Position numbers and translations under genes: made by a program. A stretch of 17,046 bases of DNA from a virus. Its lineage: Duplodnaviria; Heunggongvirae; Uroviricota; Caudoviricetes. Below the pieces are notes generated by a model, which made no database searches, was not told where the DNA came from, and saw only the letters and a program-made list of their open reading frames with translations. Positions within the stretch are counted from its first letter, which is position 1. Each line of letters opens with the position of its first letter. Of the stretch, positions 71 through 11,855 are shown one piece after another. The stretch spans positions 1 through 17,046 of the IMG/VR virus record IMGVR_UViG_2534682108_000005. One strand, written 5' to 3'.

Positions 71-709
71 TTACAAGTGTTTTTCTGGCGTTGCATTATA
101 AATTTTTTGCCAGTCTTCCAGGGTGAGTCTGGATCTGGTCACTTTAGGGATCGGTTTACGGGTAGCCTCCGGAGGATTCCATCCAGGAGGAACTTCTCCC
201 GCATGCTGTGCTTCTTTATAAATATCAACCCATAATCCGCGATTTACTCTTGCTGTGCTGACCATGTCTTTATCCATCCACTCGTCCAGTATTAATGCAA
301 AGTCTCTTACCTCCAGTTCTTTCAATGGGTGGTTTCCCAGGCGGGAAACCAGGTATGCAGCCATTCGCACTTTTTCTTTGTGGGTTGTAGCTGCAATGTC
401 TCCATTTTTCAGTCGCGACTCCTGTATTTTCAGATATCGATCAACCCATGCCTTTAATCTGATACCCCGACGTTTTGTTGCTGATGGACTTTCATCAATT
501 TTGCGCATGAAATATTCTGCTTCTGCTGCAGCTATTCGCTGATTGGCTGTTGAAGCGATTTTTTCTGCCTTACCTTTGTCTGTTCCGAGTCCGTGAAATT
601 TTCCAGTCACAGGATTTTTATACTGGTAGTAAACTCTGCCAGTTCTGCGATCAAACTTTTCGTAAAGACCGGCTACGTCAGTGCTGTTTTTTCGTGGCCT
701 CGGTGACAT
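71..709 (-). pseudogene. Truncated lambdoid tyrosine integrase: only the N-terminal arm-binding/core-binding portion (212 aa) is present; the catalytic domain is missing
   Basis: The ORF ends ...TRSRLTLEDWQKIYNATPEKHL then TAA at 71-73. This aligns with the lambda Int region RRSRLTADEYLKIYQAA that precedes the catalytic domain. Full-length lambdoid integrases are about 350-410 aa. The 70 bp to the window edge does not continue the frame. Confidence 0.65.
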
Positions 710-956
710 GAGTTAAAATCTCCTTCAGTGCATCATCATCGCCAGTATGAATTTCCGGCGCAATTCCCGTTTCACCAGGCCCAACAAATACTGCTCGGCG
801 ATCTATCAGCCAACGCCCACGAATTTTTTGTGGTCTTGGAACGATGTATCCTAGTTTTCCGTATTTCACCAGGGTAGTGTTTGTTATTGGGAGACTGAAC
901 CGTTTTGGTTTCCACTCGTCGAGCGTTATCAGGTACTGTTCGCTCATGGCTATCAC
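678..956 (-). CDS. Excisionase (Xis-like), overlapping the integrase start
   Basis: The 92-aa ORF contains YLITLDEWKPKRF, resembling the lambda Xis N-terminus (YLTLQEW). It overlaps the int start by about 30 nt, as in xis-int operons. The start could be the internal Met at 947. Confidence 0.6.
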   Translation of the reverse strand: MIAMSEQYLITLDEWKPKRFSLPITNTTLVKYGKLGYIVPRPQKIRGRWLIDRRAVFVGPGETGIAPEIHTGDDDALKEILTHVTEATKKQH

Positions 957-3572: not shown

Positions 3573-3764
3573 TTAAAGACCTGCCGGGATTTCGTTATTA
3601 TCCTGGTGAATAACTTTATCGACCGGGTAACAGTTACCGGGAATTTTCTGTTCGGTTGCTGCAGTCACACACTCCTGCATTGTCCTGTGAACACTGACTG
3701 CAGTATCAACTGGCTCTCCGGAAACAAGAAAAACTGTCAGAACAAGTGCAAATGCTGTATTCAT
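3573..3764 (-). CDS. ydfD: Small hydrophobic N-terminus protein (63 aa), YdfD-like by size and synteny
   Basis: Start at MNTAFALVLTVFLVSG with an AAGGA Shine-Dalgarno 8 nt upstream. Its ATG overlaps the stop of the upstream gene (ATGA). Size and position after the dicB-like gene match Qin ydfD as I recall it; not verified by alignment. Confidence 0.5.
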   Translation of the reverse strand: MNTAFALVLTVFLVSGEPVDTAVSVHRTMQECVTAATEQKIPGNCYPVDKVIHQDNNEIPAGL

Positions 3765-3949
3765 TGCCAGCATCCTTTTTGTATCGGACGTAAACGGGCC
3801 AACATTGAAAGAATGCATATTTTATTTAATAGCTCCCGTTCGTGTTTTCTCTTGTTAATGGCATCTTCAGTAAATACAGGGTTACTGATAGTGACACCAA
3901 TTTCAAAACAACCTTCAGACGTATTAACGTTTGGTAATAACGTTTCCAT
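3761..3949 (-). CDS. dicB: DicB-like cell-division inhibitor (62 aa)
   Basis: 62-aa ORF (METLLPNVNTSEGCFEIG...) with a GAGGA SD 7 nt upstream, lying immediately downstream of the DicF sequence on the same strand and translationally coupled to the next gene. Size and synteny match Qin dicB. Confidence 0.55.
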   Translation of the reverse strand: METLLPNVNTSEGCFEIGVTISNPVFTEDAINKRKHERELLNKICILSMLARLRPIQKGCWQ

Positions 3950-4118
3950 TATCGCGTCCTCAACAATGAATTTTGTGATGCGGTGCCTGGTGCCTCCAGG
4001 TGACGTTAACCAGTTAACAATTAACGCCGGATACAGAGAATCCACCCATAACACTGTTTTTGGTTTTAACTGTTCCGCGTGCGCTTAGCCGCATTCACCG
4101 CATCACAAAATTCACTTT

Positions 4119-4176
4119 AAAAAGGGCGGCAGAGCAGTCACGGAGTAAAACTGATACCGCCAAACGTCACCAGAAA
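4119..4176 (-). ncRNA. dicF: DicF small RNA (ftsZ-targeting antisense sRNA of Qin-type prophages) with its intrinsic terminator
   Basis: Minus-strand sequence UUUCUGGUGACGUUUGGCGGUAUCAGUUUUACUCCGUGACUGCUCUGCCGCCCUUUUU matches the DicF sequence as I recall it, including the 3' GC-rich stem and U-run. It sits between the ydfC-like and dicB-like genes as in Qin. Confidence 0.8.
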
Positions 4177-4517
4177 ATTGATAACAGAGGGCGTTGCAGC
4201 GGGATTGTCACTTAAGCGTATGGTCAACCTGACAACCCGGTGTCCTCAACGGGGGAAGGAATAACCCCGCCATACTTACCGCCGCGCCATTTCGCGGATT
4301 GCCACAACCGGAAGCGCACGGTCGACGAAAATTTAACGACAGGCTATCTATGAACCAGCTACCTCGCCGTGCGCTTTCGCGTTATGGTCTGACTTTTCAG
4401 GGAAATATCCTTTCAGTAAACTGTCAGTGCCGGATGCTCACCCGTGTCCGGCGCACGCACTCCACCTCACCCGTGGAGAACTCCTTAATTACCAACCTTA
4501 GCTTCGTTGGTTAGCTA

Positions 4518-4736
4518 TTAACGCGGGTATGTAATCATTCTGGCAATGCTTAATGCCGCTGCTTTTTCCAGATTGGTGATATCCTGCTCCAGAGCGGACA
4601 GATTTTCAGCCTGCTTAGCCCTGGCTTCATTGGCCCATTTCAAATCCTGCGCTGCATTAATTTTCTGGCGCATCCACTCATAAAGTTCATCATTGGTATA
4701 GTCTGGCGCGATGATGACGGGTTCTCGTTTCTGCAT
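4518..4736 (-). CDS. ydfC: Small protein (72 aa), YdfC-like by size and synteny
   Basis: 72-aa ORF third in the leftward small-gene operon, upstream of dicF. Size matches Qin ydfC. No catalytic motif recognised. Confidence 0.5.
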   Translation of the reverse strand: MQKREPVIIAPDYTNDELYEWMRQKINAAQDLKWANEARAKQAENLSALEQDITNLEKAAALSIARMITYPR

Positions 4737-4765
4737 ACTGATTCCTCGCGGTGCTGTTTCGCTTA

Positions 4766-4894
4766 TCAGCCGTTAGATTTTGCCGAACTGGAAAGCGCCT
4801 GTTTAAATTCGTTGAAGCTGAGAGCTTCTTCGCCTTCGGCAAGACCTTCGAAGTATTCTTCGTAAGCCTTTTCCATGATAGTGTCGAAATCCAT
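4766..4894 (-). CDS. ydfB: Small acidic protein (42 aa), YdfB-like by size and synteny
   Basis: Not in the ORF track because it is under 60 aa. Manual translation gives MDFDTIMEKAYEEYFEGLAEGEEALSFNEFKQALSSSAKSNG. An AGGTGA SD lies 5 nt upstream of the ATG at 4894; stop TGA at 4766-4768. Size matches Qin ydfB. Confidence 0.45.
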   Translation of the reverse strand: MDFDTIMEKAYEEYFEGLAEGEEALSFNEFKQALSSSAKSNG

Positions 4895-4895
4895 A

Positions 4896-5132
4896 TCACT
4901 CACCTGAGTTTCTTTCCAGCCAGCGACGGGCACCATTTTCGGTTTTAAACGTTTTGCTTTTGGTATACGTCATCGCGGTGAACGTACCGTCCTGGTTGGG
5001 GAACACGCCACATACCAGAGATTCGCTGTTGCCAAGATCGATAGTATCCATGCTGACATCATTTCCCCTTAACGCCGGGGTAGCGGAACAAAAACCTGCT
5101 GCATAGTTATTAAAGTTGAACCCTGCCGTCAT
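4896..5132 (-). CDS. ydfA: Small protein, YdfA-like; 78 aa from the ATG at 5132, or 51 aa from the internal ATG at 5051
   Basis: First gene of the leftward operon downstream of the terminator and operator site. The longer form has a GAGG SD about 9 nt upstream; the internal start gives the 51 aa I recall for Qin ydfA. Start not resolved. Confidence 0.45.
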   Translation of the reverse strand: MTAGFNFNNYAAGFCSATPALRGNDVSMDTIDLGNSESLVCGVFPNQDGTFTAMTYTKSKTFKTENGARRWLERNSGE

Positions 5133-5258
5133 GTTCTTACGCCTCGGGCTGGCTACTTAACCCCTGACCACTGCCGGGTAACTCGAAGTATTGCCTGGCG
5201 TTCTGTGGGGCGGGGTGGGTTGATGAATGAACAATACCACTACTATTTAATTATGTAA

Positions 5259-5271
5259 ATAGCAATGCTAT
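5259..5271. promoter_or_regulatory. Operator-like palindrome ATAGCAaTGCTAT in the promoter region of the leftward ydfA-dicB-like operon
   Basis: Two 6-bp inverted arms (ATAGCA/TGCTAT) around a central A, inside an AT-rich putative promoter between the terminator and the first operon gene. Near-identical sites occur in the repressor/cro intergenic region. Confidence 0.5.
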
Positions 5272-5282
5272 TATCGTAGCAA

Positions 5283-5306
5283 GAAAAAAACCACCCGAAG
5301 GTGGTT
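5283..5306 (-). terminator. Rho-independent terminator ending the repressor/toxin-antitoxin transcript
   Basis: On the minus strand: stem ACCACC, loop of 4 nt, stem GGTGGT, followed by a run of 8 U, 15 bp downstream of the ParE-like stop. Confidence 0.65.
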
Positions 5307-5320
5307 GTTGACAGGAAGGA

Positions 5321-5611
5321 TTAACAGGTTTTGTTTGGATACTGTCTTCGTGAGTGAACTACATTTACGATCTCGATGTTAGATGCTGTTACTCGGTAAA
5401 GTATTATATAGTTAGGATGAGTCACTATCTCACGAAGACTTGGAACTCTTTCGCTCGGTGGGTACAGATAAGGGTGTTCAGTAAGTGACAAAACTGATGT
5501 TTCAATGCGTATTTTTAGTCTACGTGCAGCGGGAGGGTTTTCCTTAGCAATATAGGCTACGATCTGACGTAAATCATCACGTGCAGAAGGTAGCCATAAA
5601 ATGGGCAGCAT
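5321..5611 (-). CDS. parE: ParE/RelE-superfamily toxin (96 aa) of a type II toxin-antitoxin module
   Basis: Size, basic C-terminus and overall pattern (...HPNYIILYRVTASNIEIVNVVHSRRQYP) resemble ParE toxins. Its start overlaps the stop of the upstream small gene by 1 nt, the typical antitoxin-toxin arrangement. Confidence 0.7.
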   Translation of the reverse strand: MLPILWLPSARDDLRQIVAYIAKENPPAARRLKIRIETSVLSLTEHPYLYPPSERVPSLREIVTHPNYIILYRVTASNIEIVNVVHSRRQYPNKTC

Positions 5612-5802
5612 TACTCACTCCTGTTCGTTGCAGCTAATTGAGCAATAAGGTTTTCCATTTCAGCCATTACTTCGTCATGTGGAATTGCAGGACGGGGATC
5701 TGAGAGGCTTGCTGCCACTTTGGCTCGCAACCATTCGTTATAGCTGTTTTCTTGTTCGACTGTTTCAAATTCAGAAATTATCGGGGAAAGGGCTGTACTC
5801 AT
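5611..5802 (-). CDS. Antitoxin (63 aa) cognate to the ParE-like toxin; PaaA-like
   Basis: Small acidic protein (MSTALSPIISEFETVEQENSYNEWLRAKVAASLSDPRP...) directly upstream of and coupled to the toxin gene. It resembles, from memory, PaaA-type antitoxins of the three-component paaR-paaA-parE systems of E. coli O157 prophages. Confidence 0.6.
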   Translation of the reverse strand: MSTALSPIISEFETVEQENSYNEWLRAKVAASLSDPRPAIPHDEVMAEMENLIAQLAATNRSE

Positions 5803-5819
5803 GTTTTGACCTCCTCAGA

Positions 5820-6320
5820 TTAGGCGCGACGACCCTTTTGCGCAGCTAGCCATCGCGCAACGATTTCTTCAATTGATTCTTTTTTCTCCTTCATTTCCTT
5901 AAGCATTTTCTCTTTATCTTCTTTGGGGAAAGCCCTGAACGTCTGGAGCAAATCCCGCTCCATGGGGTCTATATTAAACGGAAGTTCGTTTTCCGATTGT
6001 TCCATATCTGCAGATATAGTGACAACATTGTCCTCCCCAGATTCTTGGGGATACATCCTTACAATTTGTAACAACTCGGCCATATCTGGTCTGATTGACT
6101 CGGGAGGAACTTGCAGCAACCCTGCGAACTTGATAACAGCCTCAAGATTTAAAGGTGTCTGACCATTTAGATAATGGCTTACAGCTCCCTGTGTCGAAAA
6201 TCCCAGAATTTCTGCCGCACGCTCTTGGGTTAATCCTAGTTGATTTTTTTTCGCCGTCCAGATTTCTTTCAGTCTCTGGGCGGCTTGCAGGTCGATCTCT
6301 GACAGGGATTTTCTTTTCAT
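5820..6320 (-). CDS. XRE-family HTH repressor (166 aa) at the immunity position; DicA/PaaR-like, lacking an S24 peptidase domain
   Basis: N-terminal HTH (LTQERAAEILGFSTQGAVSHYLNG) and a charged helical C-terminus (KEDKEKMLKEMKEKKESIEEIVARWL), architecture like DicA. Divergent from the Cro-like gene, and directly upstream (18 bp) of the antitoxin-toxin pair on the same strand. Confidence 0.75.
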   Translation of the reverse strand: MKRKSLSEIDLQAAQRLKEIWTAKKNQLGLTQERAAEILGFSTQGAVSHYLNGQTPLNLEAVIKFAGLLQVPPESIRPDMAELLQIVRMYPQESGEDNVVTISADMEQSENELPFNIDPMERDLLQTFRAFPKEDKEKMLKEMKEKKESIEEIVARWLAAQKGRRA

Positions 6321-6427
6321 ACCTTCAATTCTAATAAGATTATTAATCTCTTTGAAATAGTAATGCTATTTACTTTTAAAAATAACAATGATATTAATGA
6401 TCGTGATGACATCACATGAGGTGAACA
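6321..6427. promoter_or_regulatory. Divergent immunity promoter/operator region with several palindromes
   Basis: AT-rich 107-bp intergenic region containing TAATAAgaTTATTA (6333-6346), ATAGTAaTGCTAT (6357-6369), ATAACAaTGATAT (6382-6394) and GTGATGaCATCAC (6403-6415). The GAGGTGA SD for the Cro-like gene is at 6418-6424. Confidence 0.6.
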
Positions 6428-6703
6428 ATGAATCTTGGAGAATATTTGCATCATTCCGGTATAACTCAGAAGCATTTTGCTGAAATTGTTGGGGTAACCC
6501 AGGGGATGGTAAGCCATGTCATTACCGGACGGGCGAAACTTACGGGGGAAAAAATTTTACGTTGGTGCGAAGCAACAGGCTGGATAGTAACTCCGCACGA
6601 GATTGATAGCAGTACTTATCCCAACCCAACCGACGGCTTACCTGTCGAGTTTCAGGCTAACACACAACCAGAGGCGGGGGTGATTCATGAAAATCAAGCA
6701 TGA
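6428..6703 (+). CDS. Cro-like small HTH regulator (91 aa), YdaS/DicC-type
   Basis: Divergent from the repressor. HTH signature KHFAEIVGVTQGMVSHVITGRAKLT; strong SD; overlaps the start of the next gene. Confidence 0.65.
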   Translation: MNLGEYLHHSGITQKHFAEIVGVTQGMVSHVITGRAKLTGEKILRWCEATGWIVTPHEIDSSTYPNPTDGLPVEFQANTQPEAGVIHENQA

Positions 6704-7112
6704 ACACATCCGCATGGCGATGAATGCGTGGGCATATCCTGACGGTGAGAAGGTGCCAGCTGCTGCTATTGCCAGAGCGTATTTTGAACTGGGGATGACA
6801 TATCCCGAGTTGCACAACGACGACAGGCACAACGCGCTCTATCTCAACACCCAAAAGATTTTCCGTTGGCTGGATAAAGACACTCCTGATGCTGTTGAGA
6901 AAATTCAGGCATTGTTACCGGCGATCGAAAGGGCAATGCCACCTCCGCTGGTAGCCCGAATGCGCAGCCACAGTTCCGCTTATTTTCGGGAGCTGGTGGA
7001 GACGCAGGAACGGCTAGTGAAAGATATCGATGATTTCGTTGCATCAGCGATCGTTCTGTTCGACCAGATGAATCGTGGTGGTCCGGCGGGTAATTCCGTG
7101 GCTGTGCATTGA
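6687..7112 (+). CDS. YdaT-like protein (141 aa), in the CII-like position downstream of cro
   Basis: The N-terminus MKIKHEHI and the ~140 aa length match what I recall for Rac YdaT. Position immediately after the Cro-like gene. Function assigned by position only. Confidence 0.5.
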   Translation: MKIKHEHIRMAMNAWAYPDGEKVPAAAIARAYFELGMTYPELHNDDRHNALYLNTQKIFRWLDKDTPDAVEKIQALLPAIERAMPPPLVARMRSHSSAYFRELVETQERLVKDIDDFVASAIVLFDQMNRGGPAGNSVAVH

Positions 7113-11121: not shown

Positions 11122-11699
11122 AAAGGTACATCGTTACTGTTTTACTTGTCAATACATTTGATATTGATTCTCGTTCGCATCGTTTGTTCAGGGATTTGAA
11201 GACAGATAACTGCTATGTCAATGAACCAACCCACAGTCCAACGTACTTCAGCAAAATATGGCGTCGGGATATAGCACCCTGATATTCACCACGGCAAACA
11301 CACGCCGAGAGTGTTTTTTTATCGTCGTATGTACGTGCACATCTGAATAATGGCAGGCGAATGTGATAGCCGAAAAGCTCACCGTGCGGTGATCCGGTAG
11401 TTTCACCCTGTACGTCTCATAACCCGATGATTGAGACCTTAAGCAAAACAATAACAAGGGAGCGTCATTATGACCACTCAAACTGATTTCATATTGGCGA
11501 TGTAATGGGAAGTTAAGTAGAATGGCAGCGGGTGCTTGAGGCTATCTGTCTCAGGCATGAACACCAAAAGGCAGATAGAGAAAAGCCCCAGTTAACATTG
11601 CGCGTCCGGCAAGACGCTTAACATTAATCTGAGGCCATATCTATGCTCTACACACGTAGGTTAGCCTCTTACGTGCCGAAAGGCAAGGAGAAGCAGGCT

Positions 11700-11855
11700 A
11701 TGAAGCAGCAAAAGGCGATGCTAATCGCCCTGATCGTCATCTGTTTAACCGTCATTGTGACGGCACTGGTAACGAGGAAAGACCTCTGCGAGGTATGAAT
11801 CCGAACCGGCCAGACGGAGGTCGCTGTCTTCACAGTCTACGAACCTGAGGAGTAA
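11700..11855 (+). pseudogene. hokD: hok/gef-family type I toxin gene (HokD/RelF-like) interrupted by an in-frame TGA at codon 33
   Basis: Translation MKQQKAMLIALIVICLTVIVTALVTRKDLCEV, then TGA at 11796-11798, then in frame IRTGQTEVAVFTVYEPEE and TAA at 11853-11855. This matches HokD as I recall it, with the stop where Arg is expected. AGGAG SD 9 nt upstream. Structured leader (CTATCTG...CAGATAG) upstream and a 3' stem-loop at 11862-11884. Confidence 0.7.

Follow-up and report, generated by a model that had tools for sequence, protein, structure and literature searches.

Candidate OL and OR immunity operators in a defective Qin/CP-933P-type lambdoid prophage of Escherichia coli

We studied the repeated palindromes of the immunity region in a 17,046-nucleotide stretch of prophage DNA (hereafter, the window) and found two pairs of related sites, each lying on one outward promoter: PL (5231-5259, negative strand) and PR (6369-6397, positive strand). 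Judged from the sequence, these four sites, together with a probably weak fifth one, are very likely the OL and OR operators of the immunity switch in a defective lambdoid E. coli prophage of the Qin/CP-933P type. The organization is that of the lambdoid phages: a divergent cro-like gene, tandem palindromic operators overlapping the PR and PRM hexamers, and a second operator set on the leftward early promoter, past the end of the repressor transcript. The integrase gene is interrupted by IS66, i.e., the prophage is defective, and therefore the switch may be partly decayed.

The repressor gene (5820-6320, negative strand) encodes 166 aa, with a lambda/HK620 cI-type N-terminal helix-turn-helix (HTH) head and a PaaR/DicA-type C-terminal tail (see below). 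Directly downstream on the same strand are the genes of a PaaA2-family antitoxin (5611-5802; Pfam PF21217, E 1.1e-22) and a ParE-family toxin (5321-5611; Pfam PF05016, E 6.6e-18), in agreement with the RefSeq annotation. The positive strand carries a Cro-like (YdaS-like) HTH gene (6428-6703, 91 aa; Pfam HTH_3) and the gene of the CII analogue YdaT (6687-7112; Pfam PF06254, 85% identical to O157:H7 YdaT), with a YdaT-type inverted repeat at the ydaS/ydaT junction (6680-6697). The target operon of PL (3573-5051, negative strand) was delimited from the RefSeq annotation of an identical record, and from Rfam for DicF: ydfA (4896-5051), ydfB (4766-4894), ydfC (4518-4736), the DicF RNA (4124-4175; Rfam, 76.7 bits), dicB (3761-3949) and ydfD (3573-3764), all in the negative strand. 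The first-pass annotation had described this leftward operon as dicB-like, and it is indeed a true dicBF operon.

At the left promoter, the promoter-proximal operator OL1 is the 17-mer CAATACCACTACTATTT (5232-5248), whose core at 5234-5246 is ATACCACTACTAT (reverse complement, ATAGTAGTGGTAT), and OL2 is the 17-mer AAATAGCAATGCTATTA (5257-5273), whose core at 5259-5271 reads ATAGCAATGCTAT, a perfect palindrome of 6+1+6 symmetry. At the right promoter, OR2 is AAATAGTAATGCTATTT (6355-6371; core 6357-6369, ATAGTAATGCTAT) and OR1 is AAATAACAATGATATTA (6380-6396; core 6382-6394, ATAACAATGATAT), each core with one mismatch between its arms. All sites share the frame (A)AATA-N7-TATT(T), of 15-17 bp, and both pairs have the same 25 bp spacing (5234/5259 and 6357/6382); 5233-5273, read on the negative strand, matches 6356-6396, and both contain a pair of palindromes at this spacing, along with the same -35 and -10 elements. 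OL1 and OR1 of the window are imperfect, with 2 mismatches each; the relative L006 has a perfect palindrome, ATAGCACTGCTAT, at the OL1 position, and OR1 is weaker here than in four of five aligned relatives, where position 6391 is C. Three of these 13-bp sites (5259-5271, 6357-6369 and 6382-6394) had been placed exactly by the first-pass annotation, which also had two of them correctly between the repressor and cro; the 6-bp inverted arms that it gave them are perfect only at 5259, and the leftward promoter has a second site, at 5234-5246, that it missed. A literature search did not find the operator sequences.

Three candidate promoters surround these sites. PL, obtained with a promoter scan, consists of a -35 TTTACA (5259-5254), a 17-nt spacer and a TG-extended -10 TATTGT (5236-5231); the end of OL2 provides the first bases of its -35, and OL1 overlaps its spacer and -10. 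PR consists of a -35 TTTACT (6369-6374), a 17-nt spacer and a TG-extended -10 TATTAA (6392-6397); OR2 overlaps its -35 and OR1 its spacer and -10. PR was not listed by the consensus scan because its -10 lacks the final T, and it was read directly from the sequence. PL and the annotated pR of phage HK620 both align with it base for base, and the architecture of PL, whose start site is predicted, is the same as that of PR and of the annotated HK620 pL. PL would drive ydfA-ydfB-ydfC-dicF-dicB-ydfD-exonuclease, and PR the cro-like and ydaT genes. The third promoter, PRM (6328-6356, negative strand), has a -35 TTCAAA (6356-6351), which OR2 abuts, a 17-nt spacer and a -10 TAGAAT (6333-6328). The repressor ATG lies 7 nt past this -10, and therefore the repressor mRNA, from its predicted start, is probably leaderless, as are the paaR2 and lambda cI mRNAs (PMC8630535). 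Transcription is predicted to begin at about 5224 from PL, about 6404 from PR and about 6320-6321 from PRM. An intrinsic terminator (5289-5306, negative strand), in the position of the HK620 tIMM, ends the repressor-paaA-parE transcript and adjoins OL2.

Two further palindromes between the repressor and cro had been proposed as sites for Cro or for a second regulator. The first, TAATAAgaTTATTA (6332-6345), more likely belongs to the same family as its third, degenerate member, and it probably represents a weak OR3: it is contained in TAATAAGATTATTAATC (6332-6348), inside PRM, with its center 23 bp from that of OR2, and it is the positional homologue of the annotated OR3 of HK620, with which it shares AATTCTAATA. 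This candidate OR3 was unchanged across five variants, and its fit to the motif was weak (rank 19 of 17,030 positions, score 3.3, with the weight matrix from relatives' sites described below). The second palindrome, GTGATGaCATCAC (6403-6415), was rejected as a conserved site, because four of the five close variants (L004-L007, of which L007 stands for the commonest class, at 99.4%) carry changes in it and the more distant L008 lacks it; the role proposed for it is without support. At the left end nothing resembling the motif, i.e., no OL3, was detected 23-24 bp beyond OL2, a position occupied by the terminator.

The closest counterpart of these operators was found in HK620, whose GenBank record (AF335538) annotates OR1-3 and OL1-3. 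HK620 OR1-3 and OL1-2 are AAATACC-N4-GGTATTT or a close variant, and OL3 is degenerate; the former are 17-bp operators in the same AATA-N7-TATT frame as those of the window. They are spaced by 25 and 24 bp and overlap their promoters identically: at pR and pL alike, O2 contributes to the -35 and O1 spans the -10. The HK620 PRM also has a -10 TAGAAT with the ATG 7 nt beyond, and a terminator abuts OL in both. The N-terminal domain of HK620 cI is homologous to that of the window repressor (42-46% identity), and the recognition helices, TQGAVGHYLNG in HK620 cI and TQGAVSHYLNG in the repressor, differ in one residue. In contrast, the inner bases of the operators are not the same (ACC..GGT in HK620, AGCAnTGCT in the window), so a different immunity specificity would be expected. 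Other differences are the length of HK620 cI (238 aa against 166 aa), which a note in the record likens to 434 and L cI; its lambda-type Cro, where the window has a YdaS-like one; its pL, which drives N instead of a dicBF operon; and its annotated OL3.

Beyond HK620, the repressor head was 37-52% identical to the cI heads of lambda, HK620 and Stx phages, and residues 2-115 matched PDB 1lmb/7jvt with E values of about 1e-9. Pfam detected HTH_3 and HTH_31 only, and no S24/LexA-like autocleavage domain. The last 87 aa were 47% identical to a PaaR-type paralogue from O157:H7 (locus L002), which served for this comparison in place of PaaR2 itself and whose head is unrelated; the C-terminal 51 residues were weakly similar to DicA (27% identity, E 2e-5). 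We rejected the identification of L002 with the PaaR2 of CP-933P, since the cloning primers give PaaR2 the start MQKKEIRR and L002 starts with MMSALE. The repressor could be, as a tentative reading, a natural hybrid of an HK620/lambda-type DNA-reading head and a short PaaR/DicA-type tail without a RecA-cleavable domain. Relatives of 244-255 aa have two HTH in one chain, i.e., a cI-type head, a PaaR-type HTH and then the tail, and from its sequence the hybrid appears to derive from them.

A strict two-site pattern was searched for in 596 Gb of species-representative genomes, without any match, and in viral contigs, where all 28 matches lie beside this repressor gene; the N-terminal domain was 95-100% identical in 26 of them, and the two other loci were cut off. 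With a loose module pattern we obtained 235 loci, of which 57 encode a homologue of the repressor N-terminal domain; the 72 modules that these contain all occupied OR-type (21) or OL-type (51) positions, and all 15 loci with divergent module pairs encode a head homologue. The remaining 178 loci, mostly from unrelated taxa including many AT-rich lineages, lacked a repressor homologue and were treated as chance matches. Relatives with 60-75% head identity, other tails and other cargo presented the same motif pairs at OR and OL, e.g., L008/L009, with HipA_2 and DUF3037 genes, and L010/L011, in which toxin-antitoxin genes were absent. In the Salmonella loci L012/L013 (50% identity), no sequence came within 2 mismatches of the core, yet an AATA-N7-TATT pair with 25 bp spacing is present; core specificity therefore drifts at such a distance. 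The motif travels with the repressor N-terminal domain into unrelated prophage backgrounds. Close variants (92-99% identity) kept all four sites with invariant outer ATA/TAT, and several of their substitutions bring a site nearer to the consensus; their flanks are nearly as conserved as the sites, and therefore phylogenetic footprinting is weak within the 92-100% set. Two other immunity types occupy the same chromosomal locus in L002 and L281: their repressor heads and Cro proteins are unrelated, each has its own repeated operators at both promoters, and their homology to the window stops near 5222, the predicted PL start. A near-identity search of a phage collection matched only the conserved ydfA-side flank, the immunity region being absent from that collection; about 71-72 of 5,426 complete E. 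coli genomes carry this immunity type, O104:H4 and several STEC strains included.

Since the Cro-like protein travels with the motif as well, co-occurrence cannot separate its binding from that of the repressor, and the sites might be read mainly or only by the Cro-like protein, the 166-aa protein acting elsewhere. We consider this unlikely. The Cro-like recognition helix TQGMVSHVITG, which resembles that of the repressor, is kept in all the loci with the ATAGCAnTGCTAT-type motif (window, L008 and L010) and in L012, with its looser AATA-N7-TATT pair, and it is different in L002, which has other operators. However, HK620 has a lambda-type Cro and yet shares both the AATA-N7-TATT frame and a near-identical cI helix, and across 57 loci of the loose-pattern survey the motif follows the repressor head. 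To our knowledge, the repressor and Cro share operators in all lambdoid switches studied. Such sharing has been reported (PMC8630535) and argues against a Cro-only role.

The repeated palindromes are real and not due to chance. Exactly the four sites were found in the 17-kb window at up to 2 mismatches from ATAGCANTGCTAT, whereas the same host chromosome had one such site in 100 kb scanned, against four within 1.16 kb here. None of 300 Markov-simulated windows had even one pair spaced 24-26 bp, and none of 5000 simulations with the composition of both intergenic regions gave at least two sites. A weight matrix trained only on the sites of relatives, with those of the window left out, ranked the four sites 1-4 of 17,030 positions, with scores of 25.2 (OL2, the top), 24.9, 18.7 and 17.2, the next-best position scoring 11.7. 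It is very improbable, then, that the two regions resemble each other just through duplication of a promoter sequence, or through AT-rich palindromes arising by chance, with no dedicated protein site. Some of the similarity is promoter similarity, as the -35 and -10 are common to both 41-nt blocks; nevertheless, each site is internally symmetric, a property that promoters do not require; among relatives whose heads are 35-100% identical, the AATA/TATT arms are kept and the inner bases vary; and the module was without match in the 596 Gb of other genomes. Least probable of all is that the PaaA-ParE complex uses these sites for autoregulation, the way canonical type II systems do: although paaA and parE share a transcription unit located between OR and OL, these operator pairs are also present in L008, L010/L011 and HK620, which lack both genes, and the DNA-binding regulator of CP-933P is the third component, PaaR2, and not the antitoxin (PMC8630535).

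In gene content, the window resembles CP-933P, with the gene order PL, parE, paaA, regulator, PRM/PR, ydaS and ydaT (PMC8630535, PMC9986795). CP-933P shares with it a short, non-cleavable and probably leaderless regulator with a PaaR-type tail, PL and PR with near-identical elements and matching operators, and a YdaT-type inverted repeat at the ydaS/ydaT junction. PaaR2 and YdaS act as repressors of PR, PRM and a PL whose operators match; these are 18-bp palindromes with half-site GTTTAGTAA in sets of four or three (PMC8630535). The window sites differ in sequence, and the DNA-binding head of the CP-933P regulator, judged from the PaaR-type paralogue of L002, is probably unrelated to that of the window repressor. 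In DNA reading, the closest counterparts are HK620 cI and its operators, and in gene content, the PaaR2-YdaS-YdaT region of CP-933P. Qin has the same target operon, ydfABC-dicF-dicB-ydfD, and its DicA controls a divergent cro-like promoter and the PL-like dicBp in a similar layout; lambda-like operators lie between dicA and dicC and at dicBp, which DicA represses (PMC10448788). DicA is likewise short and not RecA-cleavable, with a weakly homologous tail; the DicA HTH head had no detectable similarity to the window repressor, nor did DicC align with the Cro-like protein. Operators in Qin belong to the TGTTAGnnAnnGCTAACA type, unlike those of the window, and no toxin-antitoxin genes lie between dicA and dicBp, where the window has paaA-parE. 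Layout, promoter overlap, statistics and these comparisons all fit the idea, already put forward in the first-pass annotation, that one repressor controls its own divergent region and the division-inhibitor operon; the parallel drawn there with DicA is fair, but the arrangement is the general lambdoid OL/OR design and not specific to DicA.

The predicted switch has parallels in lambda, whose operators are 17 bp long with a central base pair and a spacing of about 24 bp, whose OR2 lies near -42 of PRM, and whose repressor mRNA is leaderless. The lambda cI head domain is homologous to that of the window repressor (PDB 1lmb, E 1.5e-9), and the operator sequence differs. Lambda OL has three sites and that of the window two, and OL and OR are 1.1 kb apart in the window compared with about 2.4 kb in lambda. 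As the window repressor has no S24 domain, induction via RecA cleavage is not expected, unlike in lambda; DicA and PaaR2 also lack it, so the domain defines an SOS-inducible subclass and not the switch layout.

In the switch that we infer for the window, dimers of the 166-aa repressor would recognize the 17-bp sites (A)AATAGCAnTGCTATT(T) with the lambda/HK620 cI-type HTH head. At each outward promoter the distal O2 overlaps the -35 and the proximal O1 the spacer and -10, and therefore their occupancy would block RNA polymerase, silencing the ydfABC-dicF-dicB-ydfD operon at PL, and the cro-like gene, ydaT and the replication genes at PR. The 25-bp center-to-center spacing would permit cooperative binding of adjacent dimers, and OL-OR looping may also take place. 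OR2, whose center is about 42 bp upstream of the predicted PRM start, seems placed to stimulate the probably leaderless repressor transcript, which would also carry paaA-parE. The degenerate OR3 inside PRM might serve for negative autoregulation or as a preferred target of Cro, and the Cro-like protein, given its similar recognition helix, probably reads the same sites.

The lambdoid OL/OR logic is ordinary and has already been demonstrated experimentally for Qin and CP-933P; what is new is the sequence specificity, and no new regulatory principle is added. If the repressor is truly a hybrid, the locus would illustrate cleanly how lambdoid repressors swap head domains and would document the exchange of immunity specificity by head swaps on a common oligomerization tail; it would also represent an SOS-independent, toxin-antitoxin-stabilized switch gating DicB/DicF, and its two-HTH relatives might read two operator sets. 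The results provide a testable map of operators (OL1, OL2, OR1, OR2 and the candidate OR3) and promoters for an uncharacterized immunity type that would govern the cell-division inhibitors DicB/DicF and that carries a ParE toxin, a map that may be used for annotation and for predicting superinfection immunity groups among Qin/CP-933P-like prophages.

The window matched, at 100% identity, a prophage in E. coli O157:H16 strain Res13-Lact-PEA12-26. Its left end carries an integrase that IS66 truncates, then an excisionase and an exonuclease, followed by the leftward operon ydfD, dicB, DicF RNA (Rfam, 76.7 bits), ydfC, ydfB and ydfA; the left control region, then a terminator (5289-5306); parE, paaA and the gene of a 166-aa HTH repressor (5820-6320), all leftward (Pfam); the right control region; and, transcribed rightward, a 91-aa HTH cro-like gene, ydaT and replication genes. 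This layout is that of lambda (PL/OL, cargo, cI, PRM/OR/PR, cro and cII), with the dicBF operon in place of N and the toxin-antitoxin pair in place of rexAB. The truncated integrase, next to IS66 accessory genes (window 77-947 and upstream, positions 1-1848 of locus L001), indicates that the element is defective. A hok/sok antisense locus, three tRNA genes and the sRNA STnc100 were found on the late-region side (Rfam; 11530-11705, 15956-16202 and 16315-16512). Among 5,426 complete E. coli genomes, about 71-72 carried this immunity type.

Direct reading of the sequence located the three 13-bp palindromic sites proposed in the first-pass annotation, here named OL2 (ATAGCAATGCTAT, 5259-5271), OR2 (ATAGTAATGCTAT, 6357-6369) and OR1 (ATAACAATGATAT, 6382-6394), and mismatch and repeat searches revealed a fourth that it had missed, OL1 (ATACCACTACTAT, 5234-5246). 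Both the left pair (5234/5259) and the right pair (6357/6382) are spaced by 25 bp. The 41-nt blocks that contain them, 5233-5273 and 6356-6396, are copies of each other (repeat finder) and, read along the outward promoters, align base for base (left, AATAGCATTGCTATTTACATAATTAAATAGTAGTGGTATTGT; right, AATAGTAATGCTATTTACTTTTAAAAATAACAATGATATTAA). In both blocks the -35 begins with the final TT of the distal site (TTTACA left, TTTACT right), and 17 nt beyond, the last bases of the proximal site form a TG-extended -10 (TATTGT left, TATTAA right). A consensus scan of the window recovered the candidate promoters PL (5231-5259, negative strand) and PRM, the leftward repressor promoter (TTCAAA 6356-6351, TAGAAT 6333-6328); PR (6369-6397, positive strand) was not listed because its -10 lacks the final T. 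Position 6391 is A in this strain and C in four of five relatives, which gives OR1 a weaker right arm (TGATAT, not TGCTAT); OL1 is also weaker than that of the close variant L006.

In the 17-kb window only the four sites matched ATAGCANTGCTAT with up to two mismatches; a 100-kb stretch of this host's chromosome presented one such site. A weight matrix built from the relatives' sites only placed the four sites at ranks 1-4 of the window, well clear of the fifth. Not one site pair spaced 24-26 bp appeared in 300 simulated windows, nor did two sites in any of 5000 simulations of intergenic composition.

Four independent lines of sequence comparison (motif to protein, protein to motif, module swaps and close variants) argue that the motif does belong to this repressor. 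A strict two-site pattern had 28 matches in IMG/VR, 28/28 beside this repressor, and no match among 596 Gb of species-representative genomes. A loose pattern (AATA-N7-TATTKAC-N7-10-AATA-N7-TATT) matched 235 loci, 57 of which encode a homologue (33-100% identity) of the head, i.e., the N-terminal HTH domain of the repressor; the 72 modules of those 57 loci all fall into two classes: 21 immediately precede the repressor start and diverge from it, and 51 lie past the 3' end of the repressor gene and face away from it. The head homologue was absent from the other 178 loci, mostly of unrelated taxa with many AT-rich lineages, and present in 15/15 loose-pattern loci with a divergent module pair. Contigs with 60-75% identical heads and other tails and cargo carried these motif pairs both at OR and at OL, among them L008/L009 (HipA_2, DUF3037) and L010/L011 (no toxin-antitoxin genes). 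L002 and L281, two loci of other immunity types, share the ydfA-side and ydaT-side flanks with the window, encode unrelated repressor heads and Cro proteins, and each repeats palindromes of its own at the two promoters. Their similarity to the window ends at GGGGTGGGT(T/G)G (about 5222-5225), approximately the predicted PL start; the operator-promoter block thus moves with the immunity module. Variants at 92-99% identity keep the four sites with invariant outer ATA/TAT, and some of their changes give perfect palindromes (e.g., OL1 and OR2 in L006); taken alone this line is weak, given that conservation of the flanks is high too. The original observation is confirmed and extended; its interpretation, that one repressor controls its own region and the division-inhibitor operon, is supported by the two-site blocks on both outward promoters and a motif that tracks the repressor.

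Repressor residues 2-90 matched the lambda cI N-terminal domain (PDB 1lmb, E 1.5e-9), and identities to named phage cI relatives were 52% (Stx2 phages), 46-48% (mEpX2 and HK620) and 37% (lambda). Over its last 87 residues the repressor shared 47% identity with a 133-aa PaaR-type regulator preceding paaA-parE in an O157:H7 prophage, and over its last 51 it was weakly similar to DicA (E 2e-5). Relatives of 244-255 aa (P0014, P0018-P0021; loci L008-L011) have two HTH in one chain, ordered as a cI-type head, a complete PaaR-type HTH and the common tail; the 166-aa repressor looks like that chain minus the second HTH. HipA_2 and DUF3037 genes follow the repressor in L008/L009 in place of paaA-parE. 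In the close variant L004 (NZ_CP148435) the annotation shows a broken repressor gene (1081-1467; a 264-nt 'regulator' CDS and a partial HTH pseudogene), and the operators and adjacent ydfA and ydfB remain in the stretch covered.

The GenBank annotation of HK620 gives OR1 (GAATACCTGTAGTATTC), OR2 (AAATACCCTGAGTATTG), OR3 (TAATAGCTAAGGTACTT), OL1 (AAATACCTACAGTATTC) and OL2 (AAATACCTTGGGTATTT), spaced by 25 and 24 bp, with pR and pL overlapping the sites in the same register as in the window. The recognition helices are nearly identical (TQGAVGHYLNG in HK620 cI, TQGAVSHYLNG in the window), whereas the operator core is ACC..GGT in HK620 and AGCAnTGCT in the window. The matching frame, spacing, register and helix therefore indicate that the window operators are a sister specificity within the AATA-N7-TATT family of HK620.

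Two further palindromes of the right control region had been suggested as sites for Cro or a second regulator. TAATAAgaTTATTA (6332-6345) lies within the PRM spacer, its 17-mer (6332-6348) centred 23 bp from OR2, and aligns with the annotated OR3 of HK620; the flanking AATTCTAATA and the PRM -10 TAGAAT, with the repressor ATG 7 nt on, are identical in both. It matches the motif weakly (rank 19 of 17,030, weight matrix) and is probably a degenerate OR3 rather than another regulator's site. GTGATGaCATCAC (6403-6415), where the PR transcript begins, was changed in four of five close variants (the commonest class among them) and missing from L008; it found no support as a site.

The helix TQGMVSHVITG of the cro-like protein is similar to that of the repressor and conserved in L008, L010 and L012 (relatives), not in L002, consistent with a shared set of operators for the two proteins, the arrangement of other lambdoid switches. 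At the end of ydaS/start of ydaT, GTGATTCATGAAAATCAA (6680-6697) is one base off TTGATT-N6-AATCAA, an inverted repeat at the same place in CP-933P for which a YdaT footprint was reported (PMC9986795), so PRE-like control is probably kept.

Repressor dimers on O1 and O2 would occlude PL and PR, with cooperative binding permitted by the 25-bp spacing. The OR2 centre would be at about -42 of the PRM start, from where lambda cI activates PRM. The repressor mRNA probably lacks a leader, a property that PMC8630535 reports for lambda cI and paaR2. OL and OR are 1.1 kb apart, and looping between them is conceivable because PaaR2 octamers are reported in earlier work cited in PMC8630535. No S24 domain was found in the repressor (Pfam), so induction would not proceed via RecA cleavage, a point also noted for DicA (PMC10448788).

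Regulation of PR, PRM and the matching PL by PaaR2 and YdaS in CP-933P (PMC8630535) and repression of dicBp by DicA (PMC10448788) have been shown experimentally. In K-12 Qin (L283, 1845-2515) TGTTAGnnAnnGCTAACA-type palindromes are repeated at both promoters (dicC-dicA and dicA-ydfA intergenic regions), and Qin shares with the window a conserved 5' leader ahead of ydfA. The window operator sequences had no match in the searchable literature. The window is a heteroimmune member of the CP-933P/DicA class that combines an HK620-type head with an operator core not described before.
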